Part shown: piece by piece, positions 6,401-39,708 of the stretch
Layout: every line of letters begins with the position of its first letter
How positions within the stretch are numbered: the stretch's first letter is position 1
Translations under genes and position numbers: made by a program
Assembly (NCBI GenBank): GCA_010909165.1
Contig: VJWM01000238.1
Span: 1-64,000 of the forward strand
DNA length: 64,000 nt
Direction: 5' to 3'
Source of the DNA: Anthoceros angustus
Lineage: Eukaryota; Plantae; Anthocerotophyta
Notes under the pieces: model-generated
Told to the model about the DNA's origin: nothing
What the model saw: the letters and a program-made list of their open reading frames with translations, nothing else
Database searches by the model: none

Positions 6401-6950
6401 CCGAGGTGTATCCTTCCGTTTCGCTTGAGTCTCACCGACATGTCCTTACTCGTTAGGCAAATCCTACCTTCCTTGGTCTTGGGATCCCATTCCATGGTTT
6501 GAATCACTTCCTTCTTCCCCATTTGAGCGTGCATTGAGATCCACATCCATGTTCGACCAATTAAGACGCTATACCTACGATTTGTGCCGGATGACTACAT
6601 AATCCATTAGATAGGAATGGTTCCAACGATCGCTAACACCCCGTGAGTTCTCCACCGCACCATTCTCGACATATCGCCAAACGCAAAACCTTGTGTATGC
6701 TCAATTTCCAACCCCAATTTTAGCCGTTCTCTCATGATATTCACACCGACTGTCGAGAGGTACCCCTTTATGATGCATCCCGCGAAATTTCCACCTGAGT
6801 TCCGCCTTGGTCAACCATGGATACTAAGTTCAGAAGTGGTCTTGGTCCGGTATAGGAAGGCGTTTTTCTTGGCCGGGCTTCTTCAATGCCCTCCGACCGC
6901 TGCCTATACCGTGGGTTGTCTCGAGGAGTTGTCCGAATGTGATCATAAAT
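3494..6950 (-). pseudogene. Gypsy pol (protease, RT, RNase H, integrase), frameshifted
   Basis: RT KKDHFPLPFID...FLDGYSGYNQ; RH DHFALKHL, KHVNADFISRL; INT DRGTHF, PYNPKANGLTEK and GPY/F motif KLHLRWMGPYKV. Order PR-RT-RH-INT with no chromodomain. Confidence 0.95.
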
Positions 6951-7149
6951 GTTGGATCCATGATGGCCTCTCGCCAAGTTAAAGAACACCTCTTTTTTCC
7001 TCCCATCCAGTTTACGTTGGTTGTAGATTCCAACTCTAGGCTTGGCACGGTGGCTTCCTCGTGGGTGGTGGACTGGGTGGTGCATTGAACCGACACCACC
7101 TTGGCCTTCGCCAGCCTCCTCCCGGATCATATCCATAACCTCTCCAGAC

Positions 7150-17581: not shown

Positions 17582-20500
17582 TCTACGGACATCAAGCTAC
17601 CACATTGTCCAAAGCGTGAGCTTCATTGACTTGTTCATGCCTTCTTTGTTAGCACAAGGAGCCTCGGGGAGCTTAGTATTGTATGCTGTGTCACCAAGCT
17701 AGGCCGATGTGAGGCAAGTATGACCAACATTGCTAGTCCACTCTTGTCTCTTCGCTTGAACTACGGACAATGTGTTGCATATAATATACAACCAAACTTG
17801 ACTCACGCTGGCGCCCACTATTGCAAACTTCGCAGCTGGTAGCAAGTTTTGGTGTGTTGAATCACCGAGGAGCCGAATTTGACCCGCCACTACGAGGCAT
17901 TTTCACGCTTGCATTCATGATTCTTAAAGCTTAACATTTGACTTAAAAGTCCAAGGAATTAACATTGGAGAAAAGTCATTTCAAAGTCCAAGGAATTCTT
18001 ACTTAACCTTAACATTGGAGAAAAGTCATTTCAAAGTCCAAGGAATTGGAAACCTTAACATTGGAGAAAAGTTATTTCAAAGTCCAAGGAATCCTACACC
18101 TTATAAGTGTCTTTGAAGGAATGCTATGGTATTAACATCTCATACATCTTCTTAAAAGCGAAAACACAACAAAGCCTTTTCAACAACTTTGTCTTGAAGC
18201 GAAGATCTCAATGGGCTCAATTTGGAGCAAAGCTAGGATTTATCAAAGTGCGGCTATAGAAATAAGACTTATTTATATGTTTGTTGTGGATGATCGTCTT
18301 GCATCATAGGCGCATGCATATGGAGATGGAATTGTAAGCAAGAATCGTCGGACGAATGCAAGCACATAAAGGAGGAGTAAACTAGCAATTTTGGAGGTGT
18401 TCTAAAATTTTGGAAACAACCTTAAAACTGAATTTAGTTCTAGACAAACCCAATTGATAGAATTGTAGAGCATAAATCTTGTTAGAGATGTAACTCCCCA
18501 TTTAAATCATATGAATAAATTGGACGTGGAAGTATTCTTGAGTGGGTACTTGCCTAAACGCAAGATGATCCATTGAGTAGGGATCACTAAACAAGACATA
18601 CGCTACGTGCCAAGCGTTGAGAGACGCCTCCGTGGTGGTCGCGCTAACTCGAGAGTTGCAAAGCTCGGGGCCAAGTCTCTATGCGAGTAGCAAAAGAGGC
18701 CGCAACTGTGGTTTCCTTGAGGCGTAGCCTTGGATGGACTGGGTGGTCCCCATCAAAGCGCGCTTGATCCGGCCGCATGTAGCCATAGGCGTGTGGATAG
18801 AGTCGTGCACGCCCTATAGCGGTCTATGGGAAAAGCTTGCTTGAACGATCTTGGCCAAACGAGTTTGTACAAGGTGTCTGTCGTTCGGTGCCCTAGCGGT
18901 CCATGGGGCAAGCTTGCTTGAAAATATCTTGGCCAAACGAGTCATGTCATTTAAAAAAAAAAAAAAGGATTCCATTGAATAAGCACTCACTCTCATAAAG
19001 GAGAAGTTTGCCATGTTGCCATTGTCCCGAGGTCCCATAGTTTACATCGATTTAACGTTGTACTCAGATTAGACCTCTTTCCAAAGTCCGCTTTATGTCC
19101 ATTTACCTAAAGTTATGAACTATATCTTTCTTCTCCAAGTGGGGATGAGATATTTGCATGTAACATAAAAGAGCCTTAGTTTAAGGTTGGAAGGATATAT
19201 AATGGACGTTGGAAAAGGGCAAAGCATGCAATGGTGGGGTGGTCAGGCCGCACATGGTGGTCAGGTTACCTCACCCACGGTGGTGTGCTATTTGATCTCA
19301 CCATGTTCCGACAAGCTTAAACCCCGACAGTCCTCAAATGAGCAGGCCGCTATTGAGTAATCGAACTAGAGAGGTGCTTATAGGTTGGCTTAGGAGGAGC
19401 TCATAAAAATAACAAATATGTGCTGCCTTGTATTGTCTTGCATACAAATATGATATGCAATATGGTCCTACCCATTGCTTTATGTTGAGGTAAAGCTACA
19501 AGATTGTATAGAAGGTGAAGTCAGACGCTCACGGACATCAAGCTACCACATTGTCCAAAGCGTGAGCTTCATTGACTTGTTCATGCCTTCTTTGTTAGCA
19601 CAAGGAGCCTCGGGAGCTTAGTATTGTATGCACAGTCGGTCAAGCTAGGCGATGTGAGGCAAGTATGACCAACATTGCTAGTCCACTCTTGTCTCTTCTC
19701 GCTTGAACTACGGACAATGTGTTGCATAATTCCAATATACAACCAAACTTGACCTGGCGCCCACTATTGCAAACTTCGCAGCCGTAGCAAGTTTTGGTGT
19801 GTTGAATCACCGAGGAGCCGAATTTGACCCCGCCACACGAGGCATTTTCACGCTTGCATTCATGATTCTTAAAGCTTAACATTTGAGAAAAGGCGTCACT
19901 CCAAAGTCCAAGGAATTCTTACTTAACCTTAACATTGGAGAAAAGTCATTTCAAAGTCCAAGGAATTCTTACTTAACCTTAACATTGGAGAAAAGTCATT
20001 TCAAAGTCCAAGGAATTGGAAACCTTAACATTGAGAAAAGTTATTTCAAAGTCCAAGGAATCCTACACCTTATAAGTGTCTTTGAAGGAATGCTATGGTA
20101 TTAACATCTCATACATCTTCTTAAAACGAAAAACACAAAGCCTTTTCAACAACTTTGTCTTGAAGCGAAGATCTCAATGGGCTCAATTTGGAGCAAAGCT
20201 AGGATTTATCAAAGTGCGGCTATAGAAATAAGACTTATTTATATGTTTGTCATGTGGATGATCGTCTTGCGCATCATAGGCGCATGCATATGGAGATGGA
20301 ATTGTAAGCAAGAATCGCTTGACGAATGCAAGCACATAAAGGAGGAGTAAACTAGCAATTTTGGAGGTGTTCTAAAATTTTGGAAACAACCTTAAAACTG
20401 AATTTAGTTCTAGACAAACCCAATTGATAGAATTGTAGAGCATAAATCTTGTTAGAGATGTAACTCCCCATTTAAATCATATGAATAAATTGGACGTGGA

Positions 20501-23500
20501 AGTATTCTTGAGTGGGTACTTGCCTAAACGCAAGATGATCCATTGAGTAGGGATCACTAAACAAGACATACGCTACGCGCTGCCGTTGAGAGACGCCTCC
20601 GTGGTGGTCGCGCTAACTCGAGAGTTGCAAAGCTCTCGGGCCAAGTCTCTATGCGAGTAGCAAAAGAGGCGCAACTGTGGTTTTGAGGCGTAGCCTTGGA
20701 TGGACTCGGGGTGGTCCCCATCAAAGCGCGCTTGATCCGGCCGCATGTAGCCATAGGCGTGTGGATAGAGTCGTGTGCACGCCTATAGCGGTCTATGGGA
20801 AAAGCTTGCTTGAAACGATCTTGGCCAAACGAGTTTGTACAAGGTGTACGGTCGCTTGTGCCCTAGCGGTCCATGGGGCAAGCTTGCTTGAAAATATCTT
20901 GGCCAAACGAGTCATGTCATTTAAAAAAAAAAAAAGGATTCCATTGAATAAGCACTCACTCTCATAAAGGAGAAGTTTGCAAGTTGCCATTGTCCCGAGG
21001 TCCCATAGTTTACATCGATTTAACGTTGTACTCAGATTAGACCTCTTTCCAAAGTCCGCTTTATGTCCATTTACCTAAAGTTATGAACTATATCTTTCTT
21101 CTCCAAGTGGGATGAGATATTTGCATGTAACATAAAAGAGCCTTAGTTTAAGGTTGGAAGGATATATAATGGACGTTGGAAAAGGGCAAAGCATGCAATG
21201 GTGGGGTCTGGGGTCACATGGTGGTGGGTTACCTCACCCACGGGTGGTGTGCTATTTGATCTCACCATGTTCACGACAAGCTTAAACCCCGAGCGAGTCC
21301 TCAAATGAGCAGCCAGGCTATTGAGTAATCGAACTAGAGAGGTGCTTATAGGTTGGCTTAGGAGGAGCTCATAAAAATAACAAATATGTGCTGCTGCCCT
21401 TGTATTGTCTTGCATACAAATATGATATGCAATATGGTCCTACCCATTGCTTTATGTTGAGGTAAAGCTACAAGATTGTATAGAAGGTGAAGTCAGACGC
21501 CTACTGGACATCAAGCTACCACATTGTCCAAAGCGTGAGCTTCATTGACTTGTTCATGCCTTCTTTGTTAGCACAAGGAGCCTCGGGAGCTTAGTATTGT
21601 ATGCGTCAGCCGAAGCTAGGCGATGTGAGGCAAGTATGACCAACATTGCTAGTCCACTCTTGTCTTCTCGCTTGAACTACGGACAATGTGTTGCATAATT
21701 CCAATATACAACCAAACTTGACTCACATGGCGCCCACTATTGCAACTTCGCAGCTTTGGTAGCAAGTTTTGGTGTGTTGAATCACCGAGGAGCCGACTTG
21801 ACCTCGCCACTACGAGGCATTTTCACGCTTGCATTCATGATTCTTAAAGCTTAACATTTGAGAAAAGGCGCCACTCCAAAGTCCAAGGAATTCTTACTTA
21901 ACCTTAACATTGGAGAAAAGTCATTTCAAAGTCCAAGGAATTCTTACTTAACCTTAACATTGGAGAAAAGTCATTTCAAAGTCCAAGGAATTGGAAACCT
22001 TAACATTGGAGAAAAGTTATTTCAAAGTCCAAGGAATCCTACACCTTATAAGTGTCTTTGAAGGAATGCTATGGTATTAACATCTCATACATCTTCTTAA
22101 AACGAAAACACAACCAAAGCCTTTTCAACAACTTTGTCTTGAAGCGAAGATCTCAATGGGCTCAATTTGGAGCAAAGCTAGGATTTATCAAAGTGCGGCT
22201 ATAGAAATAAGACTTATTTATATGTTTGTCATGTGGATGATCGTCTTGCGCATCATAGGCGCATGCATATGGAGATGGAATTGTAAGCAAGAATCGTCGA
22301 CGAATGCAAGCACATAAAGGAGGAGTAAACTAGCAATTTTGGAGGTGTTCTAAAATTTTGGAAACAACCTTAAAACTGAATTTAGTTCTAGACAAACCCA
22401 ATTGATAGAATTGTAGAGCATAAATCTTGTTAGAGATGTAACTCCCCATTTAAATCATATGAATAAATTGGACGTGGAAGTATTCTTGAGTGGGTACTTG
22501 CCTAAACGCAAGATGATCCATTGAGTAGGGATCACTAAACAAGACATACGCTACGTGCCAAGCGTTGAGAGACGCCTCCGTGGTGGTCGCGCTAACTCGA
22601 GAGTTGCAAAGCTCTCGGGCCAAGTCTCTATGCGAGTAGCAAAAGAGGCTGCAACTGTGGTTTCCTTGAGGCGTAGCCTTGGATGGACTCGGGTGGTCCC
22701 CATCAAAGCGCGCTTGATCCGGCCGCATGTAGCCATAGGTGTGGATAGAGTCGTGCACGCCTATAGCGGTCTATGGGAAAAGCTTGCTTGAAACGATCTT
22801 GGCCAAACGAGTTTGTACAAGGTGTACTGGTCGTTGCAGCCCTAGCGGTCCATGGGGCAAGCTTGCTTGAAAATATCTTGGCCAAACGAGTCATGTCATT
22901 TAAAAAAAAAAAAAGGATTCCATTGAATAAGCACTCACTCTCATAAAGGAGAAGTTTGCAAGTTGTTGCCATTGTCCCGAGGTCCCATAGTTTACATCGA
23001 TTTAACGTTGTACTCAGATTAGACCTCTTTCCAAAGTTTGCTTTATGTCCATTTACCTAAAGTTATGAACTATATCTTTCTTCTCCAAGTGGGGATGAGA
23101 TATTTGCATGTAACATAAAAGAGCCTTAGTTTAAGGTTGGAAGGATATATAATGGACGTTGGAAAAGGGCAAAGCATGCAATGGTGGGGTGGTCATGGTC
23201 CAACATGGTGGTCAGGGTTACCTCACCCACGGTGGTGTGCTATTTGATCTCACCATGTTCGACAAGCTTAAACCCCGAGCGAGTCCTCAAATGAGCAGGC
23301 CAGCTATTGAGTAATCGAACTAGAGAGGTGCTTATAGGTTGGCTTAGGAGGAGCTCATAAAAATAACAAATATGTGCTGCTGCCCTTGTATTGTCTTGCA
23401 TACAAATATGATATGCAATATGGTCCTACCCATTGCTTTATGTTGAGGTAAAGCTACAAGATTGTATAGAAGGTGAAGTCAGACGTCTCGGACATCAAGC

Positions 23501-26500
23501 TACCACATTGTCCAAAGCGTGAGCTTCATTGACTTGTTCATGCCTTCTTTGTTAGCACAAGGAGCCTCGGGAGCTTAGTATTGTATGCACAGTCGGTCAA
23601 GCTAGTGATGTGAGGCAAGTATGACCAACATTGCTAGTCCACTCTTGTCTCTTCCGCTTGAACTACGGACAATGTGTTGCATAATTCCAATATACAACCA
23701 AACTTGACTCACGGCGCCCACTATTGCAAACTTCGCAGCTGGTAGCAAGTTTTGGTGTGTTGAATCACCGAGGAGCCGAATTTGACCGCCACTACGAGGC
23801 ATTTTCACGCATTCATGATTCTTAAAGCTTAACATTTGAGAAAAGGCGCCACTCCAAAGTCCAAGGAATTCTTACTTAACCTTAACATTGGAGAAAAGTC
23901 ATTTCAAAGTCCAAGGAATTCTTACTTAACCTTAACATTGGAGAAAAGTCATTTCAAAGTCCAAGGAATTGGAAACCTTAACATTGGAGAAAAGTTATTT
24001 CAAAGTCCAAGGAATCCTACACCTTATAAGTGTCTTTGAAGGAATGCTATGGTATTAACATCTCATACATCTTCTTAAAACGAAAACACAACAAAGCCTT
24101 TTCAACAACTTTGTCTTGAAGCGAAGATCTCAATGGGCTCAATTTGGAGCAAAGCTAGGATTTATCAAAGTGCGGCTATAGAAATAAGACTTATTTATAT
24201 GTTTGTCATGTGGATGATCGTCTTGCGCATCATAGGCGCATGCATATGGAGATGGAATTGTAAGCAAGAATCGTCGGACAAATGCAAGCACATAAAGGAG
24301 GAGTAAACTAGCAATTTTGGAGGTGTTCTAAAATTTTGGAAACAACCTTAAAACTGAATTTAGTTCTAGACAAACCCAATTGATAGAATTGTAGAGCATA
24401 AATCTTGTTAGAGATGTAACTCCCAATTTAAATCATGAATAAATTGGACGTGGAAGTATTCTTGAGTGGGTACTTGCCTAAACGCAAGATGATCCATTGA
24501 GTAGGGATCACTAAACAAGACATACGCCAAGCGTTGAGAGACGCCTCCGTGGTGGTCGCGCTTAACTCGAGAGTTGCAAAGCTCGGGCCAAGTCTCTATG
24601 CGAGTAGCAAAAGAGGCGCAACTGTGGTTTCCTTGAGGCGTAGCCTTGGATGGACTCGGGGTGGTCCCCATCAAAGCGCGCTTGATCCGGCCGCATGTAG
24701 CCATAGGTGTGGATAGAGTCGTGTGCACGCCTATAGCGGTCTATGGGAAAAGCTTGCTTGAAACGATCTTGGCCAAACGAGTTTGTACAAGGTGTACTTG
24801 TTGCTGCAGTTCTAGCGGTCCATGGGGCAAGCTTGCTTGAAAATATCTTGGCCAAACGAGTCATGTCATTTAAAAAAAAAAAAAAGGATTCCATTGAATA
24901 AGCACTCACTCTCATAAAGGAGAAGTTTGCAAGTTGCCATTGTCCCGAGGTCCCATAGTTTACATCGATTTAACGTTGTACTCAGATTAGACCTCTTTCC
25001 AAAGTCCGCTTTATGTCCATTTACCTAAAGTTATGAACTATATCTTTCTTCTCCAAGTGGGGATGAGATATTTGCATGTAACATAAAAGAGCCTTAGTTT
25101 AAGGTTGGAAGGATATATAATGGACGTTGGAAAAGGGCAAAGCATGCAATGGTGGGTGGTCAAGTGGGTCGCACATGGTGGTCAGGGTTACCTCACCCAC
25201 GGGTGGTGTGCTATTTGATCTCACCATGTTCCGACAAGCTTAAACCCCGAGCGAGTCCTCAAATGAGCAGGCTATTGAGTAATCGAACTAGAGAGGTGCT
25301 TATAGGTTGGCTTAGGAGGAGCTCATAAAAATAACAAATATGTGCTGCCCTTGTATTGTCTTGCATACAAATATGATATGCAATATGGTCCTACCCATTG
25401 CTTTATGTTGAGGTAAAGCTACAAGATTGTATAGAAGGTGAAGTCAGACGCTCACGGACATCAAGCTACCACATTGTCCAAAGCGTGAGCTTCATTGACT
25501 TGTTCATGCCTTCTTTGTTAGCACAAGGAGCCTCGGGAGCTTAGTATTGTATGCACAGGTCAGTCAAGCTAGGCTGATGTGAGGCAAGTATGACCAACAT
25601 TGCTAGTCCACTCTTGTCTCTTCTGCTTGAACTACGGACAATGTGTTGCATAATTCCAATATACAACCAAACTTGACTCACAGTGGCGCCCACTATTGCA
25701 AACTTCGCAGTTGCTGGTAGCAAGTTTTGGTGTGTTGAATCAGCCGAGGAGCCGAATTTGACCCTGCCACTACGAGGCATTTTCACGCTTGCATTCATGA
25801 TTCTTAAAGCTTAACATTTGAGAAAAGGCGTCACTCCAAAGTCCAAGGAATTCTTACTTAACCTTAACATTGGAGAAAAGTCATTTCAAAGTCCAAGGAA
25901 TTCTTACTTAACCTTAACATTGGAGAAAAGTCATTTCAAAGTCCAAGGAATTGGAAACCTTAACATTGGAGAAAAGTTATTTCAAAGTCCAAGGAATCCT
26001 ACACCTTATAAGTGTCTTTGAAGGAATGCTATGGTATTAACATCTCATACATCTTCTTAAAAACGAAAAACACAGTCAAAGCCTTTTCAACAACTTTGTC
26101 TTGAAGCGAAGATCTCAATGGGCTCAATTTGGAGCAAAGCTAGGATTTATCAAAGTGCGGCTATAGAAATAAGACTTATTTATATGTTTGTCATGTGGAT
26201 GATCGTCTTGCGCATCATAGGCGCATGCATATGGAGATGGAATTGTAAGCAAGAATCGTCGGACGAATGCAAGCACATAAAGGAGGAGTAAACTAGCAAT
26301 TTTGGAGGTGTTCTAAAATTTTGAAACAACCTTAAAACTGAATTTAGTTCTAGACAAACCCAATTGATAGAATTGTAGAGCATAAATCTTGTTAGAGATG
26401 TAACTCCCCATTTAAATCATATGAATAAATTGGACGTGGAAGTATTCTTGAGTGGGTACTTGCCTAAACGCAAGATGATCCATTGAGTAGGGATCACTAA

Positions 26501-27594
26501 ACAAGACATACGCCACGTGCCAAGCGTTGAGAGACGCCTCTCCGTGGTGGTCGCGCTAACTCGAGAGTTGCAAAGCTCGGGCCAAGTCTCTATGCGAGTA
26601 GCAAAAGAGGCCGCAACTGTGGTTTCCTGAGGCGTAGCCTTGGATGGACTCGGGGTGGTCCCCATCAAAGCGCGCTGATCCGGCCGCATGTAGCCATGGG
26701 CCGTGGTGGATAGAGTCGTGTGCACGCCTATAGCGGTCTATGGGAAAAGCTTGCTTGAAACGATCTTGGCCAAACGAGTTTGTACAAGGTGTACGGTCGT
26801 TGCAGGCCCTAGCGGTCCATGGGGCAAGCTTGCTTGAAAATATCTTGGCCAAACGAGTCATGTCATTTAAAAAAAAAAAAAAGGATTCCATTGAATAAGC
26901 ACTCACTCTCATAAAGGAGAAGTTTGCAAGTCGGCCATTGTCCCGAGGTCCCATAGTTTACATCGATTTAACGTTGTACTCAGATTAGACCTCTTTCCAA
27001 AGTCTCGCTTTATGTCCATTTACCTAAAGTTATGAACTATATCTTTCTTCTCCAAGTGGGGATGAGATATTTGCATGTAACATAAAAGAGCCTTAGTTTA
27101 AGGTTGGAAGGATATATAATGGACGTTGGAAAAGGGCAAAGCATGCAATGGTGGGGTGGTCATGGGGTCGCACATGGTGGTCAGGTTACCTCACCCACGG
27201 TGGTGTGCTATTTGATCTCACCATGTTCACTGACAAGCTTAAACCCCGAGCGAGTCCTCAAATGAGCGGTGCTGGCTGAGTAATCGAACTAGAGAGGTGC
27301 TTATAGGTTGGCTTAGGAGGAGCTCATAAAAATAACAAATATGTGCTGCCCTTGTATTGTCTTGCATACAAATATGATATGCAATATGGTCCTACCCATT
27401 GCTTTATGTTGAGGTAAAGCTACAAGATTGTATAGAAGGTGAAGTCAGACGCTCACGGACATCAAGCTACCACATTGTCCAAAGCGTGAGCTTCATTGAC
27501 TTGTTCATGCCTTCTTTGTTAGCACAAGGAGCCTCGGGGAGCTTAGTATTGTATGCACAGGTCAGTCAAGCTAGGCTGATGTGAGGCAAGTATT
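17582..27594. repeat. Tandem array of about 1.97 kb units (5 full copies plus about 0.14 kb)
   Basis: The anchor ggacatcaagctaccacattgtcc recurs at about 17587, 19533, 21506, 23490, 25456 and 27457. Each unit has 50-bp subrepeats (aaagtccaaggaat...) and a long A run. Confidence 0.97.
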
Positions 27595-28300
27595 TATGGA
27601 TGATTGTTTGAGACCATACAGGGTCTTAAGCAGCTTCAACACCTTGTCAGGGTTTTTTATGTAGCCTTCTGGCTGACTCATATATATATCTTCCTCTAGA
27701 AGGCCAGAAGGTGCTTTGACATCCGGTGCTTGGTGGACTATCAAGTTGAAGTGGGCAGCAATTGCTAGGAGTATTCTAACAGAGGTTGATTTCACAACAG
27801 GGGCGAAAGTCTCGTTGTAATCTACATCAGGGACTTGACTATACCCCTTGGCTACTAATCTGGCTTTATACCTCCCCACACTGCCATCTGTATTTAAATT
27901 TTTTTTGAACAACCATTTGCAAGCAACAGGCTTGCGACCAGGAGGTAGGTCAACTTGCTTCCATGTCTTGTTTGAATAAGAGAGGAGTATTCAGACTCTA
28001 TGGCCTTTTTCCATTGCTCTGCCTCAGGGCCTTCTATTGCTTCTTTATAGGTAGCAGGTTCATCTAAAGAAGCCACCGGTGATTGAGGACAAAATCTTGA
28101 GAAAGGGAGCAAGAAAGTGACCATACCACGACATAGCTCCGGTTTCCACTCTTCTATGGGACCCATCAAGCCTTGTTGAACGACGAGAGGAGGGGGCTCG
28201 GTTCTGAGATCCGAACTGCTAACTGACCAAGAACTTCCAGAAAGTTCGCAACATCGCTAGGTAATCACCGTGCCAACAAGAAACTGCTGGACATCCAAGT
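27595..28300 (-). mobile_element. Ty1/Copia pol fragment (INT-RT linker and N-terminal RT), truncated by the tandem array
   Basis: EPATYKEAIEGPEAEQWKKAIESEYSSL...RYKARLVAKGYSQ...DYNETFAPV...IYMSQPEG...LYGLKQS. Confidence 0.95.
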
Positions 28301-28334
28301 CTCAGAAAGGCGCAGGTGCTTGAAGACGGTCACG

Positions 28335-28437
28335 TTGAATTGCCGGGTCACCGCTGAATTGCCGGCCGTTGAATTGCCGGGTCAGCCGCTGAATTGTCAC
28401 GTTGAATTGCCGGGTCAGCCGCTGAATTGCCGGGTCG
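28335..28437. repeat. About 20 bp minisatellite (gaattgccgggtcagccgct)
   Basis: About 5 imperfect tandem copies. Confidence 0.8.
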
Positions 28438-28459
28438 TACGCCCAAAGATTGGAAATGG

Positions 28460-28890
28460 AACGAGAAGTCCAAAGAACGGAGAATGCACAACTCCCTAGG
28501 AGGATAGGGGAGTTGGAGGAAGAAATGGCAAAGGAGAAAGGCCGTCATGAGGCAGCAAGATATGTTGGCGGTGAGGGAGCAGATTTCTGATTATGCCCTA
28601 CAAGAGAGATTGATCCGCCAACCGCAGTAATGAGAGGACGGAGAATGTGGTTTCCATGTCAAGACCGTGAGCTGGCCTTGGAGCGAGATGCTTACAAAAG
28701 CAAGTGTGAGCATGGAGTATGGCTTGAGGATTACGAAGAATTGGAGATGGCACAACAACGATTTGCAGCCCATCTTCACAACAAGGTGCTCAAGGCCACT
28801 AACGAGTTGTTGCGACTTGTTGAGAGGAGGATGTTGGGACCTCATGACGATGATAGGGAGGCCTCATGCAAGTCCAACCGGAAGCCTTAG
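28460..28890 (+). pseudogene. Charged, coiled-coil-like ORF remnant, probably retrotransposon accessory sequence
   Basis: RIGELEEEMAKEK...ELALERDAYKSK...YEELEMAQQRF. No domain recognised. Confidence 0.25.
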
Positions 28891-29468
28891 ACTTGGAGAG
28901 TGTCCCAAGCAACATGGTGGAGAAACTGCACTGTGGAGAAGCGAAAAGGGGGAAGCCGCATGGTGGAGAGAATCACCCTGTGAAGGGGTAAGGAAGAAGA
29001 AACCCCGTAGGAACTCCTACCATGGTAGGAGGGGTCCCACCATGGTAGGAGGGAGAAGGTCCTACCATGGTAGGAGGGCCGGAAGAAGCAAATGGATTCA
29101 AAGGTTGCTAACATGGATTTGACGGCAAGGGAGGCGAGTACCTTGGCCCTTGTGAAAGAAGGAAGAGGGGTTGATCTTGCAGAATGGAGCAAGAATCACA
29201 AGGAGAAGACCAACCTCCTAACATGGGTGCAGGAACAAGGGGCTCACTTGCTCCACAAGTGAGAGGAAGAGGAGAAGCTGAGGATCAGCCAGTGGCTAAG
29301 AGAGCCCGGGCTATTTTATTGGAGGAAGGAACTCAAGATAGGCATCAAGATAAGGAAGGGGATTCATAAGAAGTCTGTCGCACGAGGTAAGCACTTGAAT
29401 TCATGTAAGCACTTCCTCGACCAACAACCAAGCGAACAAATCGAATACGCAGATATATAGGTGCAACC

Positions 29469-30044
29469 AAAACAACAGGAGGGAGTAGCTCGCACGTCGT
29501 GGCACAAACACACTCTCCCCACGAGAACAACACGCAAATTCCTCACACATCGCCTTGAGTCATAGCTTTGGCCTCCTCACAACGCCTTGCATTGCATCTA
29601 GAGGACAAGCTATGATCCGAGCTTGTCCTCAATGGAAGGGTCTATATATACTAGACTGCATCGCATATTCCTAAGATATCCTATTGGCATCAAGATATGC
29701 CGAAATATCCTAAGAATACACTATAATATGCAAGGAATATGCCAAAGCATATTACTTGAGCTTATCCACTTAGCTATTGTATCCTAAGAATACACTATAA
29801 TATGCAAGGAATATGCCAAAGCATATTACTTGAGCTTATCCACTTAGCTATTGCTAACCATGTTTAATTAACACTAATCAATGCTTAATTAACATAAGCA
29901 CATTAGATTAATTAACACTAATCAATGCTTAATTAACATAAGCACTTTAGATTAATTAACACTAATTACTTACTTAAAGATAAGTAATTAGATTAATTAA
30001 TGCTAATCAAACACTAAACCCAAGTGCGTAGATTAGTATCACAC
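29469..30044 (-). repeat. Terminal repeat B2 (about 575 bp, LTR-like)
   Basis: Near-identical to 34838-35395, including the internal 73-bp and about 44-bp AT-rich tandem duplications. Confidence 0.9.
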
Positions 30045-30204
30045 GGCATGGCGGTGTGCTAAGCACTTGAATTCATATAAGCACTTCCTCGACCAACAAC
30101 CAAGCAACAAATCGAATACGCAGATATATAGGTGCAACCAATCCCCCGATAATGTGAGACTCTAAGTCAAAACATTATCATTAGTAGGACTACACACGAC
30201 GCAC

Positions 30205-30285
30205 CTCATGTAGCGCATTGTGCACAAAACCAATCTCCTTCGGAATGTCGTCGAGGTTATGAACCTTGTCCATGAGTGGAGGCTT
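30205..30285 (-). pseudogene. PHD-finger C-terminal half (remnant)
   Basis: PPLMDKVHNLDDIPK(G)DWFCAQC with one 1-bp correction. Matches the PHD signature PPL..IP.GDWFC..C. Confidence 0.55.
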
Positions 30286-30369
30286 GTCTTGCATCCTTAT
30301 GGGCTGTCATGTGGACTACTCTCCCCATTGCTCGCCATTTTCTTCTTGCCTCGAGCTGCCTCTCCGCAA

Positions 30370-30512
30370 CACGGTTCATTCTTGATTAGTTCTATGTGGA
30401 ACTTCCCTTTGGTGTACTTCCCCATCTCCGCAAGCGTGAAAGCAAACACATGTCGCGATGCCTCCAACAACTCCTTTAGACGCTGATTGCTCTTCAACTC
30501 GACGTTAACCAC
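30370..30512 (-). pseudogene. N-terminal (pre-RT) segment of Gypsy-type pol, cut by a deletion
   Basis: LKELLEASRHVFAFTLAEMGKYTKGKFHIELIKNEP resembles the L..LL....DVFA.....G......HI.L...P linker that precedes LTR-retrotransposon RT. Confidence 0.7.
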
Positions 30513-30669
30513 TCATGTGGTGGCTCGATGGCTTGCACGCTTCACGTGCTCGCTCTCCTTGCCCTCCAAACTCGCCTTCTCCTGTTGAGATGCGAGTGCC
30601 GAATGTCCTTCACCCACCGAACCCGCCGCTTCAACCCCGCCTTCTCGGTTGGTGTTTACCCGGCTAAAC

Positions 30670-31560
30670 AACCAGTCATCATGTTCACGTCAAATGCTTG
30701 CCCAAGCAATCGACACCGTTCCTTCTCGGTCACTCCGGTGTCTCGTGGCCCCATCAAATCCCATGGCCAACTCCTCTCGTGGTTGGCTCTCCCAAGGCCT
30801 CGCCATGTCTCCCACCACAACGCCGGGCCATGGTTCCAAGGCGTAAGACTTGGACTTAGACACAAAGGTTGGCCAAGCCGCCATGGGGTGTCCAGCGTGT
30901 TCACAGGAAGTGCGGCTTGTCACCTTCTTGATGACTTGTTGGGCATGCCTTCCGATGCTAGCACATCCTTGACAACATGATTAGGTCGCTTGGTGAACGA
31001 CCTCGACACTTCAAATGTTCCAAGGGAGCAAGGTTAGTCCACATGGACCTCAACCTATGAGCCCTCGAACCAAATTGAGTCGCATCCAATAGAAGCTCCC
31101 GACCCAACACTCCTCGGATCGTGGCAAAGTCCTCCCGAACTTGCTTCTTCACGCTCATGCATGCCGGCACATTCTCCAACATGTATCCACAAGGCCTTTC
31201 TTGCCCTTTCGGATCAAGCGCAAGATCCTCATCAGTCATAGAACAATGCCGTGGATCCTTCGACCTTGACCCTTGCCTGCAGAGGATAGTCCTTGACACT
31301 CCCAACTGCGATGACAAGGTCCACCGGTTGCCCAAGACAACTCAAATGGGACAACCCTATCATGCGAACATCCATCGCCTCGGTAACCCTTCACCGACTC
31401 CCACGCCGGAGGTTAGGTACTCCCCATCAAGTCTCTTACGCTCGTGACACAATCCTTGCTTTTGGATCCGGGTCACAATGCACGATCTTCGCACTTTGAT
31501 GCCACACTTTAGCACCGCCCAAGCCGATCGATGCCTCCAAAGAGTTCCACGAGCACTATG
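30670..31560 (-). pseudogene. C5 DNA cytosine methyltransferase domain (DNMT3/retrotransposon-DNMT-like) within pol
   Basis: Motif I IVLVELFGGI (31530-31556); II VHCDPDPKAR; III/IV DVRMI...VDLVIA(G)WECQGLSSAGKG (31293-31304); STALFY; VI GYMLENVP (about 31170); VIII LLLDATQFGSRAHRLRSMWTNL (31032-31090); IX/X ELAMGF...ERCRLLGQAFDV (about 30690). Correct order over about 295 codons, with several frameshifts. Confidence 0.88.
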
Positions 31561-31949
31561 CCGTCTTCCCGAGGTCGCCATGTGATGACCGGGTGTTTAG
31601 GTCACAAACAGGCTCAACCCTAGGCAAGAACTTACAGTAGTTCTCCGGCTCATAGGGCACCGGTCCTCTTGCACCATCCTCCATGCCTTTTGCACGGCTA
31701 TCACTCACCAGCCTCCGAGTGACTTGAAGAACCTCCTCCGAGGGTGGTTGCAACCCTAGCTTGTTTTCCTCCTCCTCGCCGAAATCCTCCATCGTGTCGG
31801 CGTTGTTAGACACACGCCAAGAGGTTCAAGCACGTATGGCGTGTCCTTCACTACGGCGCCAAACACCGGGTAGACGCTGGCAATGAGGTTCTCATGATCC
31901 TTGCCATGCACAGAGGGATGCGGGCAATCCGTTCATCGGCTCAGCTTCT

Positions 31950-32270
31950 CCGGTCGATAGTAGACTGTCTCCGTCCACAAATCCACCATGACTCTGTGTT
32001 TGTACAAAGCGTCCGCTCCCAAAGAAGACATCAAAAGTGTCTCGCATCGTGACCAAGCGGTTACAAGGTGAAGTCTGCTGTGGTTTGAATGAAACCTTCA
32101 GCTTGTACCTTGTCACCCCAACACATGCTCCGTGGTCCCCATGCGTCCGGATCTTCCACTTGGTTTCCTTCAACCTTTCTTGGTGGAGACCCAACGCTTC
32201 CTTCACTCTTCTTCCAACGATCACCGTGTGCTCGTCAATCAACACCTCCTTGGTGCGAATCCATTGATTT
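31950..32270 (-). pseudogene. Retroviral-type aspartic protease remnant
   Basis: INGFAP...VLID at 32233-32260 and a downstream FDVFFG (xDVLLG-like) motif. The catalytic D(S/T)G is disturbed. Confidence 0.6.
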
Positions 32271-32899
32271 CAATGTGCCTCTCCGATTGTTGACCAAAGC
32301 CACTCCCACTGCAAAGATTCCGCTTCCACCGAGATGCTTGGCTCGAGGTCGCAATGACATCATTGCCAATTTGTGGCACATTGTCGACACTTGCTTCGTC
32401 TTCAAGGGTTGTCAACATCCGCCGAGTCAAACCCCGACTTCCTTCACGCTCAACCCCATGTCTTGTAGGTCAAACATGGCATCTCCGAAGCTTTTGTGCC
32501 ATGCCCGCCGCCAATCTGCATGGGTTTCTCCACATCGCCCACTGGACTTTGATGTTGCTCCCACAGCTGTTCTGCTGGCAATGGCTCAAACGACTTTGGC
32601 ATCTTGGCATAGGTTCGGAAGAGGATCCCAAGCTTCCTTCCGTGTCTTCCGTGACCGGTGTCAAGACATCCTCTTCTTCCTCCGAGCTATCTTCTCTCGT
32701 AGGCGGAGGTTTCTTCCCTGCCCTTGGATCCGGGTCACGCCATGTATCCAAGCTTGTGCTCATCTTCTTCGTCCTCGATGATGAACCGCCGCTCTCCTTG
32801 ATCTTCGCCCGCACCAACTTCTCCAGCTTTGCAAGGCGTGCCACGTAGCTGTCCATCGCCTTCTTTGATGCTTCCCGTTTCTTTTGTCCACGGGACTTC

Positions 32900-34042
32900 G
32901 CCTCCTCCACGGCGCCTTTGCTCTTCACCGATTTTGTGGATGAGGTTGACGCAGATGCATTGGCCGGGTTGCTCGATAACCCGTAGGCCGCAATTCGGAT
33001 GCTTCTCCCAACATGCCGCTTCATTGTGCCTGCATTCCACACCTAGGGCATGGCTCCTCACCCTTGACTCCTCCGAATGCATGCTCGCACTCATGAGGGG
33101 AATGGTCCGTCCTCGGCACCTCACGCAGGGCTCGCCACTTGGCCGTGGGCTTGGGCTTGGGCTTCTTCGCCTCCTCCACTCGACCTCCGTCGGCCATGTC
33201 GTCCACCACTCCTACTTGTGTTGGAGTAATCACTTGCAACAAAGACGAGAGAAAGTGTCGGGCCCTATCTTGTCGCCCATCTCGTACACTTCCTTGAGGG
33301 TGTAGTGTTGCCCTTCGCGGTGCACTTGTTGCACCTTCATGCGCAGTGCATATGGCAATGCCTGCAAGTACTGCAATCGGTCACTCATGATCTTGGTGTC
33401 ACGCATAACCGGTCGATTCTTGATAAGCCATCTTCGCAGCCTCGCCGACTTCATCTTGAAGTGTGTCACCGGAGATCTTCTCATCCGTGCTTGCAGGAAC
33501 TCCCGAAGATGTCAAACATCTCTTCGATGGGATCGTGCCCACTCGGCCACCGCCTGTCTCTGACCGTTCCTTCGGAGCTTGAACTGCCACTCACCGGTCC
33601 TCCGCCGCTCAACAACCTCGCCTTGTGCTCGCGATAGCACGCCAATGCTTCATCCCCAAGTACTTGGCATTTGGATGAAGCCGTATCGCTTCGTGTATCC
33701 GGTCTTCAATTCCATCTCCGCACACACCGCACTGCATTTCTCGATGAAGTCCTCCGCAAGGTGCCCGCTCCCGTGAACAACTCCATTCGATCCTTGTCTC
33801 CTCCCATCTTGACGACTCCAAGAGACAAGTCCTCCTCATTGCCGCTCACCGAGTTGTCCGAAGACTAACGTGTCTTGTGTGTTGCCACCAGATCCTTCAA
33901 AGATTGTTGATTGTGTCGCTGGGTTCCTCCGTCCTTCGGTGGTACCAAAATCGAGGTGTTCGCACTTCTCCTCTTGGTCGGGACTTGAATTCGCTCGATG
34001 GACTTGGTTGGTAGCTCCGTCCGGATCGAGTGTGTCCAGCAT
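32900..34042 (-). pseudogene. gag with CCHC zinc knuckle
   Basis: CPRCGMQ(G)HNEAACW at 33011-33050 fits CX2CX4HX4C after one indel correction. Upstream YLQALPYALRMKV is gag-like. Confidence 0.75.
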
Positions 34043-34429
34043 GCACTCCAGGCGGTTAGTGGCTAGATCAAACCCTTAATCAAGGTTAACACCCCGCTAT
34101 CTTAGATCGTGATTAGTGAAACCTCTAAGTATCTATGCATGTTAAAATCGCATAGAAATACTCTGCAGGCTATATCTCAAAAAAATGTGAGCTGGGTGAG
34201 TTGGATAGCAAAGGCATAGGAACTCCAGTTAAGCACCGCGGGTGGATCAGTACCTGGATGGGGTGCCGACAACTAGGAGTTTTGGACAGAAAGTGAAATC
34301 AAATGGACTGATGACATACCCATGTCTATCCGCTTCCCTTATCCCTTGAATCCGGGCCCAAGAGTAAAATACTCTTGTTTCTCCTTGGTTGGTTGGCCTT
34401 AAAAGGCCAGCCCCTGTGGAGGCCTCATT

Positions 34430-34810
34430 CCTCTCCTTGGGCTTCTTCCTTCTTCGCCTCCTCTCTCCTTGGCCTTGAGCTCCTCCTCTCCTTGGCCTTG
34501 GACTTGGGCTTCGCCTCTCCTTGGCCTTGGACTTGGGCTTCTTCGCCTCCTCTCCTTGGCCTTGGACTTGGGCTTCTCCTCCTCCTCCTTGGGCTTCTTC
34601 TCCTCCTCTCCTTGGCCTTGGGCTTGGTCCCTCTAGGCCTCAAGCCTTGGGCACACTTGAGAGTCCCTTGCCTACTTGCTTAAAGAGCGAGCCTCGCCTA
34701 GCATCGCCTAGCACCTAGCATCGCCCAGCATCGCCTAGCCACCTAGCATCGCCTAGCACCTAGCATCGCCCAGCATCGCCTAGCATCGCCTAGCATCGCC
34801 TAGCACGCCT
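34430..34810. repeat. Leader minisatellites (ttggccttggacttgggcttc units; gcctagcatc 10-mers)
   Basis: Visible tandem units between gag and terminal repeat B1. Confidence 0.8.
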
Positions 34811-34837
34811 ATCTAGGTACACACACGAGATCATAGC

Positions 34838-35395
34838 AAACAACAGGAGGAGTAGCTCGCGTGGCACAAACACACTCCCCACGAGAACAACACGCAAATT
34901 CCTCACACATCGCCTCTGAGTCATAGCTTTGGCCTCCTCACAACGCCTTGCATTAGATATCTAGAGGACAAGCTATGATCCGAGCTTGTCCTCAATGGAA
35001 GGGTCTATATATACTAGACCGCATCGATATTCCTAAGATATCCTATTGGCATCGATATGCGAAATATCCTAAGAATACACTATAATATGCAAGGAATATG
35101 CCAAAGCATATTGAGCTTATCCACTTAGCTATTGTATCCTAAGAATACACTATAATATGCAAGGAATATGCCAAAGCATATTACTTGAGCTTATCCACTT
35201 AGCTATTGCTAACCATGTTTAATTAACACTAATCAATGCTTAACATAAGCACATTAGATTAATTAACACTAATCAATGCTTAATTAACATAAGCACTTTA
35301 GATTAATTAACACTAATTACTTACTTAAAGATAAGTAATTAGATTAATTAATGCTAATCAAACACTAAACCCAAGTGCGTAGATTAGTATCACAC
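34838..35395 (-). repeat. Terminal repeat B1 (5' end of the DNMT retroelement)
   Basis: Direct copy of 29469-30044; minus-strand start gtgtgatac. Confidence 0.9.
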
Positions 35396-35909
35396 CAAGA
35401 TGACAAGTCCTTAATTAACTTGAAGACATGGGGCAAGATGCCACTGGGAAGACTTTCTTTAGAGGAGGATGTAGATTAATGCTTGTCACCCAAAGAGGGG
35501 TGTGTTGACTAGCTAGATAGAATGTTGACAGAGCCATTAAGGCTCACATAGGTGAATTTTGCTAGAATAGAATTTTACCTAAGATGCTTGGATGTCGAAC
35601 TTAAATTCACAATAGGATACACTAAAATAAGGGAGGGCACAAGCCTAGAGGGCCAGGAGGCAGGTCAGAGGTGAGTTCTATAAAGGAGGAGCTTGTGAAG
35701 TAAAATTATCGTGTCTTGGCGCCTCCCATCCTCCCGAGTCCTTCGCTTTGTGTGAATTTCGTACAAATGCAAGCACCCAGCGGTTCCGGTAGGAGGGAGA
35801 ACGCAGCACGGAGTGTCAGTGAGGGTTTAAAGGTGTGCGCCGGCTACGCTGTGAATGGGCTTTGTCAATTGTTTTGCTTTGAGTGTGTGGCTTGCCCTAA
35901 GGAACTCTC

Positions 35910-38900
35910 GGCTTTTAGGATTTCCAACTCATGAAGGGAAGAGGTCATGGATATGCTCCAGGAGGAGCTAGGCAAAAAGGTCACGGTAGTAGAGGCGGAG
36001 ATGCCGGCTTCCAATGCCGCCCCACTTGAGAGAGCCACTGCACTCAAGCCTAACAAATACTGGGGCCAGCAACCAACGAAACATCAAGTGAAAACGACAA
36101 GAAGGTGCTTCCTTTAACTTAGCGGAGGCCATCATGGATCAGCATTTTATGATCACATTTGGACAACTCCTTCGAGACAACCCACGGTATAGGTAGTAGA
36201 TCAGGAGAGCATTGAAGGAAGCCCAGCCCAAGAAAAGGTGATGCCTTCCTAAACCAGGTCCAAGGCCACTTGCTGTCAACCTAGTATCCATGGTTGACCA
36301 AGGACCAGCGGAACTCCAGGTAGAGATCGCGGGGTGCATCATAAAAGGGGTACCTCTCGATATGGGGTCAGGAGTGAATATCATGACGGAGGAAACGGCC
36401 AGAAATTGGGGTTGGAAATCGAACATACAGGTAAGGTTTTGCGGTTGGCGGATATGTCCAGAATGGTGCCAGTAGGAGAACTGACAGGCGTGTTAACGAT
36501 CATTGGAACCATCCCCTATCTAATGGATTACGTGGTCATCAAGCACAAGTCGCCGGGGTATAGCGTTTTAATTGGTCGAACCCGGATGTATGGATCTCAA
36601 TGCACGCTCAAATGGGGAAGAAAGGAAGTCGGATTCAAACCACTGGAATGGGACCCTAAGACCAAGGAAGGTAGGATTTGCCTAACCTGGAGTAAGGACA
36701 TGTACGCTGGCGAGACCCCAACGGAAACGGAAGGATACACCTCCGCTGAAGATACGTCGGGGGAGACGGAACAAGAAGACAAATTTCCTTTCGCACACAT
36801 CTCATGGTCTGACGAGGAACAGGATTATCGCAGAGATATTCCGCACGCGATCAATCGTTATGGGGTAACCAGATCAGACCGAACTTCGAAGGAGGGAAAA
36901 GTGAAGGTGAACAACCGGATGAGGAGGAAGAAACAGGCATCACGCGGTTCACCTCGGAGGATCTGTTTCGAGAGTGGGGCATGCGAGAAGAGGAACCGTG
37001 GGAGCCAGAAAAAGGGTTCGGGGTGAGCACGGCACCAGTGGAGCGTGAGTGGGTACAGACGGATGAAGTCAAGGATGTTGAGGTTCTTCCAGGGAAAGTA
37101 CTCAAATTCTCAAGAACAATGCATGCGGCGTTGGAAGAAGGCATGAAGCAACTGCTTGCAGAATTTATCGATGTTTTCGCCTTCAAGGTAACCGACATGA
37201 AGGGTATTCCCAAGGAGTATGCAGTATAGGATTGACACGAGCCAGAGCAATCGAAGGATTCCGCAGTACAAGTTAAATCCGAAGTACTCCCTCAAGGTCA
37301 AGGATGAGTTGGAGCTGTATCTCAAGCCGGACGTGATCTATCCTATAGTCAATACCGAGTGGGTGGCTCCAATCGTGGTAGTACCTAAGAGATGCCCGCA
37401 AAATCCGTGTCCGCTGCGACCCACAAGATTGAATAAAGTCACCAAGAAGGATCACTGCATTCTTCATCAATAACATCCTAGATCCGTCGCAGTGATGGCG
37501 ATTCATTCTTAGATGGGTACTCGTTATAACCACCGCACTTAGGAAAGCGATTGGCGACCGCTTTACAACGGATCGGGAACATTACCTGCAAGCGCAATAA
37601 GATTTGGGCCGAGCGCCCGGCCTTTCATGCGAACCATCGTCAAGATCTTCAAGGACTTTCTTAGGGACTTTATGGAAGTCTTCTTGGACGACTTCTGCGT
37701 ATTTGGGGCTGTCAAGGACCATTTGTCGCACCTCCGAAAGTGTCTGGAACGGTGTCGAACCACGCAATTATGCCTGCATCCAGAAAAGTGCTACTTTGGC
37801 ATGTCAGAAGGAATTCTGTTGGGGCATCGGATTTCAAGCAGAGGCATAGAGGTCGATCCGGACAAGGTAAAGGTCATAGCCACCCTTAGGGCGCCAACAA
37901 CGCTGAAGGAACTCCGTGGGTTCCCTACGCCTGAGTATGACGTTTCATCCCCTTTTGCCAAGCTGCTGCCCACTAACGAGCTTGTTGAGAAAGGACCAGG
38001 AGTGGGAATGGACGACGGAACGGAGAAAGCATTCAGACTCCGCAGACGACATCAAGCTACCACGCTTAAGAGGCTCAAATCGAGTAAGAAATTCCACGCT
38101 GCTGATGTTTCGACATTCGTAATTGGATCGGTCCTTAGCCGGGATGAGAAGAAGGATTTCGATCTACTATGCCGCGAGACAACTAACGGACGCGAACGAA
38201 GTATACCACCACGAGCCAAGCACTGGGAATGATTTACTCGTCAGAAATCGCACATTCCTCTCATATGAGTTTGTGTTTCACGTTGATCACTTTGCCTTGA
38301 AACACCTTGTGAATAAACGTGACCTTTCGGGACGGATAGCGCGCTGGATCTTACTGCTTCAGGAGTTTACCTTCATAGTAGAGACGAGAGAAGGCAAGAA
38401 GCATGTCAACACCGACTTCATATCCCGCTTGAAAACAGGAACGGTGGAGCGGAATCAGGAAGATGATTTTCCCGATGAGACACTCGCTCAGAAGGATTGA
38501 AAGCAACAGCAAGAACCGCCTAAGGAGGACACCCACCGATTGAGAAGGGGAGGAGAGGTTTCGCAAGACCAACATATCAGGAGATCTATGATTATCTGGG
38601 CACGGGCCAAATTCCTCCACATCTTTCCAAGGCACAGAAACAGGCGCTCGTCCACTACTCAAGACCACTTACACGGCACGGTATGAACTTATACCGAGTG
38701 GGTCCGGATGGCGTGGAGCTTATGGCACGCACTCAAGGTGCAAGCAGTCCCGAGCTCATTTAAGACGAGGAGGAGGCGGGGCCATTATGCCGCATGTCAC
38801 CAGGAAAATTGAGGTCGGGCACAGGCCTACAATGTACAAGGATGCTGCGTGACCAGAAATCACCGTGACGCTACAAAGAGTCGGCAAGCCAACAACTCAA

Positions 38901-39708
38901 TGGCCCCTTGTCCCATACTTGCACCGCACCATTCGAAATGGGGATCGATTTTGTCGGCCCATCCAGCCCAAAACCAAGACCCGCCAAAACCAATACATCC
39001 CGAGTGTGACATGACACGGATGGTGGAGGCGCGCAGCTACCGCCAGGATTCGATGGTGGCTGTTTGCTCGAGCAAATCATCACTAGATATGGCTGCCCAT
39101 TGGAGCTGGTCAGCGATAGAGGTACGCATTTCGTCAATCAGGTAATCTCTAATATGACCAGCCACTTCAACGTGGCTCACAGGAAGTCCACTCCCTACAA
39201 CCCAAAGGCCAATGGGCTGACAGAGAAGGCAAATGGCTTGTTGTGCAAAATCCTGACCAAGCTCAATCACGCTTATGGTATGGATATGAAATCGCATTCA
39301 AGACTGCCAGAACCAAAAGGTAACAACGCAGCAGCACTCGTGACTCATATGGACATTCATCTTCGCTTGCGCCATTGAAGTACCCACCTTAGTACGAACC
39401 AAGTCGAATGCCCTGGAGGAAAGCCGCTTGGAGAGGTTGGTTGGATTCGTAAGACACACGGAGGACAGAGAGCAAGCACTACAAGTTATGCGGGATGTTC
39501 AGCAAAGGAGGACAGAATGGCACGATAAGCGACTGAAGCGCCAAGAGCATGTTGTTCCTGGAGACCTGGCTTTATTGTATGATAACCGATACATGCATTT
39601 TCTAGGTAAATTACATCTAAGGTGGATGGGACCCTACAAAGTCTTGGAGGTTTTCGACAACGGATCTATCCAGCTGCAGCAGTTGAGTGGATCGCCCCTG
39701 CCAACTAG
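35910..39708 (+). mobile_element. Second Gypsy copy (end of gag, PR, RT, RH, INT) of the same family as 3494-7160; 5'-truncated and interrupted at the 3' end by CACTA
   Basis: PR VPLDMGSGVNIM; RT VFLDDFCVFG...LHPEKCYFG; RH VDHFALKHL; INT SDRGTHF, PYNPKANGLTEK, LRWMGPYKV. Colinear with the reverse complement of the first copy. Confidence 0.93.

Follow-up and report, generated by a model that had tools for sequence, protein, structure and literature searches.

A young, internally deleted Gypsy element with a predicted DNMT3-type methyltransferase domain, probably in a non-seed land plant

Genes and repeats in the window

The window, that is, the whole stretch of 64,000 nucleotides that was analyzed, holds two recognizable host genes and a 6030-bp retrotransposon copy on the minus strand. 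The first gene, an intact RPL18 of 187 aa at 59182-60021, has introns of 86, 107 and 84 bp, one of them of the GC-AG type. The second is a three-exon gene for an NPF/PTR transporter whose best single-domain matches were land-plant NPF3.1 proteins at 44-57% identity; among the best 120 of 498 matches there was no named alga, and none exceeded 57% identity. In trees this gene branched outside angiosperm NPF3, adjoining it and not NPF8, with modest support. A further 197 ORF pieces from the window yielded no other host marker, and no tRNA genes were found in it.

NPF subfamilies arose within land plants. Judged from the NPF gene, the host is probably a land plant outside the seed plants that has a compact genome. 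A hornwort would agree with the shortness of the introns and with the scarcity of near matches in the databases. A first-pass annotation of the window had spoken outright of a land-plant genome; that attribution is likely, and it rests on this one NPF3-like neighbour with its modest tree support. The alternative, in which the same element and mechanism belong to a streptophyte alga and the range already in print is not extended, draws on the Closterium proteins that are the nearest named relatives of the methyltransferase domain, on the 57% ceiling and on the modest support for the NPF3 placement. The lack of named algae among those 120 matches, the land-plant NPF3.1 proteins at the top of the single-domain matches, and the position of the three-exon gene beside angiosperm NPF3 rather than NPF8 count against an algal host, to which we give a slim chance.

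Elsewhere in the window, about five tandem copies of a ~1.97-kb unit, 95-96% identical, span 17583-27593 and adjoin a Copia RT fragment (27571-27990). Two related Gypsy copies, 78% identical and on opposite strands (3531-6984 and 36112-39708), carry reverse transcriptase (RT), RNase H (RH) and integrase (IN), and no DNMT.

Structure of the element

The features of the element, listed in its own reading direction after the element as a whole, are as follows (window positions).

29376..35405, minus strand: whole element, 6030 bp, with termini TGTC...GACA (terminus inspection; empty site in X1 and X6 contigs)
35406..35409, no strand: 4-bp target-site duplication at the 5' end of the element (AGTC on the plus strand; single copy in the empty-site contigs)
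34838..35395, minus strand: repeat A1, the 5' repeat (against A2, 578 columns with 2 substitutions and 11 indel events)
32950..33850, minus strand: gag region, frameshifted, approximate bounds (weak profile match, i-E 0.079)
near 33050-32990, minus strand: CX2CX4HX4C-like knuckle (by eye only; the knuckle profile gave no match)
31940..32245, minus strand: aspartic protease (PR) region, frameshifted (profile i-E 8.8e-8 and 2.1e-4; tblastn with P0088, E 4.3e-7)
30660..31580, minus strand: predicted DNMT3-type C5 cytosine methyltransferase domain (frameshift-aware alignment and profile; ~10 frameshifts)
30372..30500, minus strand: pre-RT segment, the start of the RT domain (profile i-E 1.8e-9; alignment)
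30255..30371, minus strand: region containing the internal deletion, breakpoint approximate (RT core, RNase H and integrase missing, about 2.8 kb relative to P0102)
30209..30256, minus strand: C-terminal portion of a PHD finger (GDWFCxxC), the end of pol (best match in the window to a 66-sequence PHD profile, i-E 0.0023)
30142..30150, minus strand: short polypurine tract adjoining B1 (same place in relatives)
30060..30141, minus strand: repeat B1 (against B2, 1 substitution and 1 indel)
30045..30059, minus strand: internal B1-A2 junction, 15 bp (garbled here; relatives have a GACA-NN-TGTC palindrome)
29470..30044, minus strand: repeat A2
29388..29470, minus strand: repeat B2, followed by the 12-bp 3' terminus
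29372..29375, no strand: 4-bp target-site duplication at the 3' end of the element

The repeats are thus split and direct, in a DIRS-like A...B-A-B order. The empty site was seen joined in X1 and X6 contigs, within a surrounding repeat (28300-29375 and 35406-36120) that has good cover in X1 and little or none in X2 and X3. TG...CA ends with a short target duplication, an integrase signature, are present here and in the related locus L044 (TACA/TACA). An ordinary two-LTR structure was rejected because the 5' repeat lacks B, and a tyrosine-recombinase (DIRS/PAT/Ngaro) reading was rejected on account of the 4-bp target duplication; no tyrosine-recombinase domain was matched in the intact relatives, which encode an rve integrase. 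No TGG-type primer-binding site was seen after A1 in the window element, L007 or L073, and a motif scan did not find the D-T/S-G family motif of the protease intact in this copy. The 5' leader (34400-34800) holds short tandem repeats of two sorts, one with units of 10 bp and the other purine-rich, with units of about 29-35 bp that resemble a stretch of gag (33121-33186). Since A1 and A2 differ by only 2 substitutions, the insertion is young.

The methyltransferase domain

The motifs ELFGG, HCDPD, DLVIA-WECQGLS-AG, ENVP, HRLRSMWTN and LLGQAFDV lie in canonical order on the minus strand (31580-30660), spread over three frames, and include what we take to be motifs I (ELFGG), IV (WECQG, with the Cys), VI (ENV), VIII (HRxR) and X (LLGQA). 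In frameshift-aware alignments, where an X was placed at each frame break (9-11 frameshifts), the domain scored 358 against P0108 (148 of 383 positions identical), 303 against P0102 and 268 against the Closterium protein P0088; its identity to these three intact retroelement homologues is 35-39%. Controls gave 30-62 for 12 shuffles per query and 34-44 for reversed and opposite strands. When a profile of 188 domains was run against the whole window (2564 six-frame pieces), the only matches were five collinear pieces at 31601-30659, with a best i-E of 6.9e-20. None of the five single-frame window pieces of the domain matched Pfam PF00145 directly; PF00145 was present in all five intact homologues examined, and it is through them that the window domain receives its Pfam assignment. 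An ESM Atlas search with a 127-aa domain piece reached PF00145 clusters at 0.91-0.93, which we treat as a lead only. The longest domain piece used as a query retrieved one homologue (P0001), the domain of which retrieved 117 proteins; no relative came out of a metagenome scan in which a 59-aa piece of the window itself was the query.

The first-pass annotation had read C5-methyltransferase motifs in canonical order on this strand, and the alignment scores, shuffle controls and profile bear it out; a C5-methyltransferase match is recovered once the frames are repaired. It had also placed the domain after a gag-knuckle and protease and before a pre-RT linker. The protease and the pre-RT segment are upheld by profile matches, the Gag match is weak and the knuckle was recognized by eye.

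Contigs covering 30100-31650 were numerous in three studies under three organism labels: 768 in X1, which is possibly the source of the window, and 1722 and 946 in the two independent runs X2 and X3. These contigs are short unitigs, and their summed depth was not used as copy number. The DNMT part is no one-off capture, given its many sequence variants under three labels. A host DNMT3 fragment caught by a single copy, or an assembly chimera, might be suspected from the indel-rich repeats of the assembly and the lack of a direct Pfam match. The domain is intronless, however, 35-39% identical to retroelement DNMTs, continuous in alignment with the pre-RT segment, placed in the same order as in intact relatives and found in hundreds of variant contigs, and we consider such an origin extremely improbable.

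Against the PDB, the clade profile ranked DNMT3A/B/C first (E about 1e-23 to 1e-18), DRM-type enzymes next (1e-13 to 1e-10), and then DNMT2 and bacterial enzymes; DNMT1 and CMT were absent from its 57 PDB matches. P0088 alone gave the same ranking, with DNMT3A/B/C on top, and DNMT3A/B were the top fold matches of the predicted structure of the homologue P0134 (mean pLDDT 77). The profile and the fold match agree with the resemblance to DNMT3 noted at first reading. A DRM identity was rejected on the unpermuted order of the motifs. As judged from these comparisons of homologues and of a profile that includes a window piece, the domain is of the DNMT3 type (not DRM, MET1 or CMT).

Deletion of the core and age of the copy

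Profile and domain searches gave no match to the RT core, RNase H or integrase inside the window element. The earlier description of a retrotransposon pol with a DNMT between protease and RT holds for the order, but of RT this copy has the start alone, which runs straight into the PHD tail. Because RT-RH-IN are missing, this copy cannot transpose alone; it is a deletion derivative of a Ty3/Gypsy element that has RT-RH-IN in its relatives. One X1 contig departs from the window sequence at 30243, inside the PHD tail, and its letters there are PHD-like, as would be expected of siblings that extend further upstream. Contig depth is zero at 30256-30359 in X2 and X3, which is not proof of a sibling divergence point. 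The internal deletion may be real.

The many frameshifts of the copy are probably assembly errors, as indicated by three observations. Indels exceed substitutions in all the repeats compared (satellite units differ by 12-20 substitutions and 30-44 indels); the host genes RPL18 (187 aa) and NPF (367 aa read) splice without a frameshift; and at a single site 385/399 of the X1 depth differs from the window by one base.

Relatives and phylogeny

The homologues have two layouts. Most of the 117 proteins are RT-RH-DNMT-IN-PHD, and their named members are mostly chlorophytes. In 7 of the 117, including those of Closterium, the DNMT precedes the RT, as gag-PR-DNMT-RT-RH-IN, and the intact P0108, P0098, P0102 and L005 have the same domain order as the window. 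Relatives of the window element end in a PHD finger. The RT-RH-DNMT-IN-PHD Gypsy elements (P0001-P0117; L001, L003, L065 and others) form a large family with Haematococcus and Monoraphidium as named members, and no published account of it was found in the literature searched. Flanks of related loci (38 of 118 flank ORFs were scanned) contain an ankyrin-PGG gene and a PIF1 helicase, and one holds an 803-aa open frame without a Pfam match (L044:18590-20998).

Domain trees of 118, 75 and 39 rows, which are subsamples of the loci and the 188 full domains, grouped the window with Closterium and with P0108, P0098 and P0109 (SH 0.95-0.96 in FastTree, UFBoot 75 in IQ-TREE), independently of the guide protein. 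The Klebsormidium nitens proteins GAQ93235 and GAQ80425 fell among the PR-DNMT proteins. The clade of all PR-DNMT elements plus Klebsormidium had SH values of 0.83-0.94 in FastTree but a UFBoot of only 50 in IQ-TREE. P0153, which has the RT-RH-DNMT layout and is the highest-scoring protein against the window, adjoins this clade. Intact relatives and the variant contigs carry the domain too, so that it is not peculiar to one copy.

Catalytic motif and selection

The catalytic Cys is kept in the window domain, where Glu-Cys stands in place of the Pro-Cys dipeptide that DNMT3 and Klebsormidium have in motif IV. Among 234 homologous domains the context is ECQ in 131, PCQ in 45 and another residue in 5, with 53 not matching the pattern; PCQ occurs in Klebsormidium and metagenome subclades. 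Since ECQ is the commonest form, we read it as the family norm rather than as decay. The departure from PCQ reported by the first-pass annotation was thus seen correctly, and it is no defect.

Among related metagenome loci, dN/dS of the domain was 0.12-0.23 in the 7 unsaturated pairs between subfamilies; a single near-identical pair gave 0.89, and 13 of the 21 pairs were saturated. Between subfamilies of these relatives of the window element, purifying selection acts on the domain. CpG observed/expected is 0.85 in the element versus 0.84-0.85 in the neighbouring DNMT-less Gypsy elements, and CpG depletion gives no special signal of a methylation footprint in the element.

A pseudo-enzyme, kept for DNA or SAM binding or for the structure of Pol and making no methylation, would accommodate the replacement of PCQ by ECQ in those 131 homologues and the inactivity of the Klebsormidium enzyme in yeast (PMC5890265), and purifying selection is no proof of catalysis. 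Yet distant lineages have all preserved motif I, which binds SAM, together with the catalytic Cys, HRxR and the Glu of motif VI (ENV), the Klebsormidium and metagenome subclades do carry PCQ, and DNMT3B failed in the same yeast assay (PMC5890265). We regard loss of catalysis as unlikely.

Ends and junctions in the relatives

Among the 12 PR-DNMT-RT loci with a PHD finger, a palindromic CA-NN-TG junction was tied to the repeat by script in five (L007, L034, L042, L073 and L074) and was seen by eye in L005 and, in a decayed form, in L059 and L060; some PR-DNMT-RT loci represent one element that occurs in more than one assembly. L073 has the complete A1...B1-A2-B2 layout, L027, L044 and L048 stop where B1 ends, and L033 is truncated by the end of its contig. 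Target duplications are a perfect 4 bp in L044 and a 3/4 match in L073. The purine tract always adjoins B1 on its upstream side in the relatives. In the RT-RH-DNMT-IN-PHD layout, 2 of 30 loci (probably one element) have split repeats and the junction palindrome. The short A...B form of L027, L044 and L048 has TG...CA-type ends (with the 4-bp duplication in L044) and no terminal repeat, and it would escape LTR-finding tools.

Conservation of the GACA-NN-TGTC junction suggests, by analogy, that the integrase cuts it in the manner of foamy viruses; this proposal rests on the relatives because the window's own junction is garbled. B-NN-A would act as the functional LTR. The internal B-A junction would serve as the template for both integrase ends and would be copied to rebuild the ends of each new element, and the integrase would cut at the CA-NN-TG palindrome after each CA, with two bases lost. 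The short A...B form could be the product of cuts at both junctions or else of B1-B2 recombination. Foamy virus integrase cleaves a palindromic 2-LTR junction, and integration costs the two nucleotides that separate the conserved CA ends (PMC1180852), as the junction of the relatives would predict; the viral junction arises when a genome with the usual two LTRs becomes circular, whereas the relatives store theirs inside the integrated element, and the analogy is only one of how the junction might work.

Comparison with described elements

KnitGypsy-Dnmt3 of Klebsormidium nitens has been described as having Gypsy domains with DIRS-like repeats (de Mendoza et al. 2018, PMC5890265). It shares with the window element DIRS-like repeats and a Gypsy pol whose DNMT3-type domain has no introns and no permutation of its motifs, and the K. 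nitens protein GAQ93235 has the same knuckle-protease-DNMT order. The window element differs in having ECQ (PCQ in K. nitens), in being closer to Closterium, in its likely land-plant host and in its absent RT-RH-IN. The PHD tail, the TG...CA ends, the 4-bp duplication and the junction palindrome of the window element or its relatives go unmentioned for KnitGypsy-Dnmt3 in the available text of PMC5890265, in which the term PHD does not occur. The kind of element is known from Klebsormidium, and the gain here is one of range and mechanism, with no new category.

The nearest branch consists of Closterium CLOM_g18840, CAI7911866, CAI5973665 and CAI7886383 and the metagenome proteins P0108, P0098 and P0109. 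They share the gag-knuckle-PR-DNMT-RT order and WECQG with the window, are only 36-39% identical to it, and have database entries without a transposable element description. The chlorophyte RT-RH-DNMT-IN-PHD Gypsy elements (Haematococcus, Monoraphidium) have the same DNMT family and PHD tail, and differ in that their DNMT comes after RNase H and before integrase. SymbioDIRS-Dnmt3 is likewise a retrotransposon with a C5 methyltransferase, in its case of proven CG activity, and with A/B repeat sets, but it uses a tyrosine recombinase (PMC5890265). EpiLTRs carry C5 methyltransferases as well, which are sister to DNMT4 and are accompanied by DAM and a chromodomain (bioRxiv 10.64898/2026.05.21.726589).

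As for land plants, retrotransposon DNMT3 is cited for "streptophytes" and dinoflagellates, with land plants unnamed, in the available text of a 2025 article (PMC12344493) and of the 2026 EpiLTR preprint (bioRxiv 10.64898/2026.05.21.726589); in the latter, "land plant" and "bryophyt" have no mentions. The 2018 proteome survey took in Selaginella (10 DNMT genes) and Physcomitrella (9) (PMC5890265), and a hornwort chromatin paper (PMC10952607) makes no mention of Gypsy-DNMT3-type elements in its available text. We found no land-plant report of such elements in the literature searched, which lay outside subscription papers and the supplements of the EpiLTR preprint.

Proposed mechanism

Our preferred reading, to which we give a probability of roughly 60%, is that the window holds a young, internally deleted Gypsy-DNMT3 copy of the KnitGypsy-Dnmt3 kind in a likely non-seed land plant, and that intact members likely carry a DNMT3-type enzyme in their particles, with which they methylate their own cDNA before integration. 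The products of an intact member would be Gag and a Pol composed of PR-DNMT-RT-RH-IN-PHD. In P0108 and P0098, the window's nearest relatives, there is one continuous ORF. In 21 of 32 related loci (e.g., L004:2081, L005:5083 and L008:4509) an in-frame stop followed by CAR-YYN lies between gag-PR-DNMT and RT-RH-IN-PHD. CAR-YYN after a stop is a read-through signal context, and read-through of the stop downstream of the DNMT may be an alternative expression route in these loci. In retroelements, fusion to Gag or Pol predicts packaging.

Within the particle, where new cDNA would be the sole double-stranded DNA, the DNMT would be released by the protease. The substrate would be this cDNA of the element itself, probably methylated at CG by analogy with DNMT3A and SymbioDIRS-Dnmt3, and the PHD finger may read chromatin at insertion. 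To move, the window copy would have needed enzymes supplied by a full-length sibling, presumably the autonomous partner, unless it lost its core after insertion. Cis-methylation of cDNA by a retroelement DNMT was proposed by de Mendoza et al., who found that SymbioDIRS-Dnmt3 enzymes methylate CG in yeast and that KnitGypsy-Dnmt3 made no methylation there, a result the authors call inconclusive (PMC5890265).

An active enzyme might instead act chiefly in trans, with host DNA or copies already integrated as its substrate, so as to damp transposition or shape host methylation. The stop after gag-PR-DNMT in the 21 loci would put DNMT at the level of Gag, far above RT, the window copy retains gag-PR-DNMT with RT-RH-IN gone, and a host-benefit model was raised by de Mendoza et al. 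(PMC5890265). Against this stand the single continuous ORF of P0108 and P0098, the packaging predicted from Gag/Pol fusion and a Klebsormidium methylome that is not unusual (PMC5890265), and we hold a mainly trans role to be quite unlikely.

The preferred reading, methylation of the element's own cDNA, can be joined with the junction proposal in a broader and more tentative account, which we would not put at even odds. Gypsy-DNMT3 would then be an old green-plant lineage, recently active in a land plant, in which a stored junction opened by the integrase in the foamy virus manner and a packaged DNMT3 yield pre-methylated cDNA; this would be a replication route that has not been described among LTR retrotransposons.

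Significance

If this account is true, the combination of an integrase, DIRS-like split repeats and a stored junction for cleavage would represent a new route by which an LTR-type element rebuilds its ends. Should the host prove to be a land plant, a de novo methyltransferase borne by a transposon has outlasted the move to land. De novo methylation by land plants themselves can depend on DNMT3, as described for Physcomitrium. With a land-plant host, the element would offer a tractable system for asking why a transposon carries an enzyme that is used to silence transposons.
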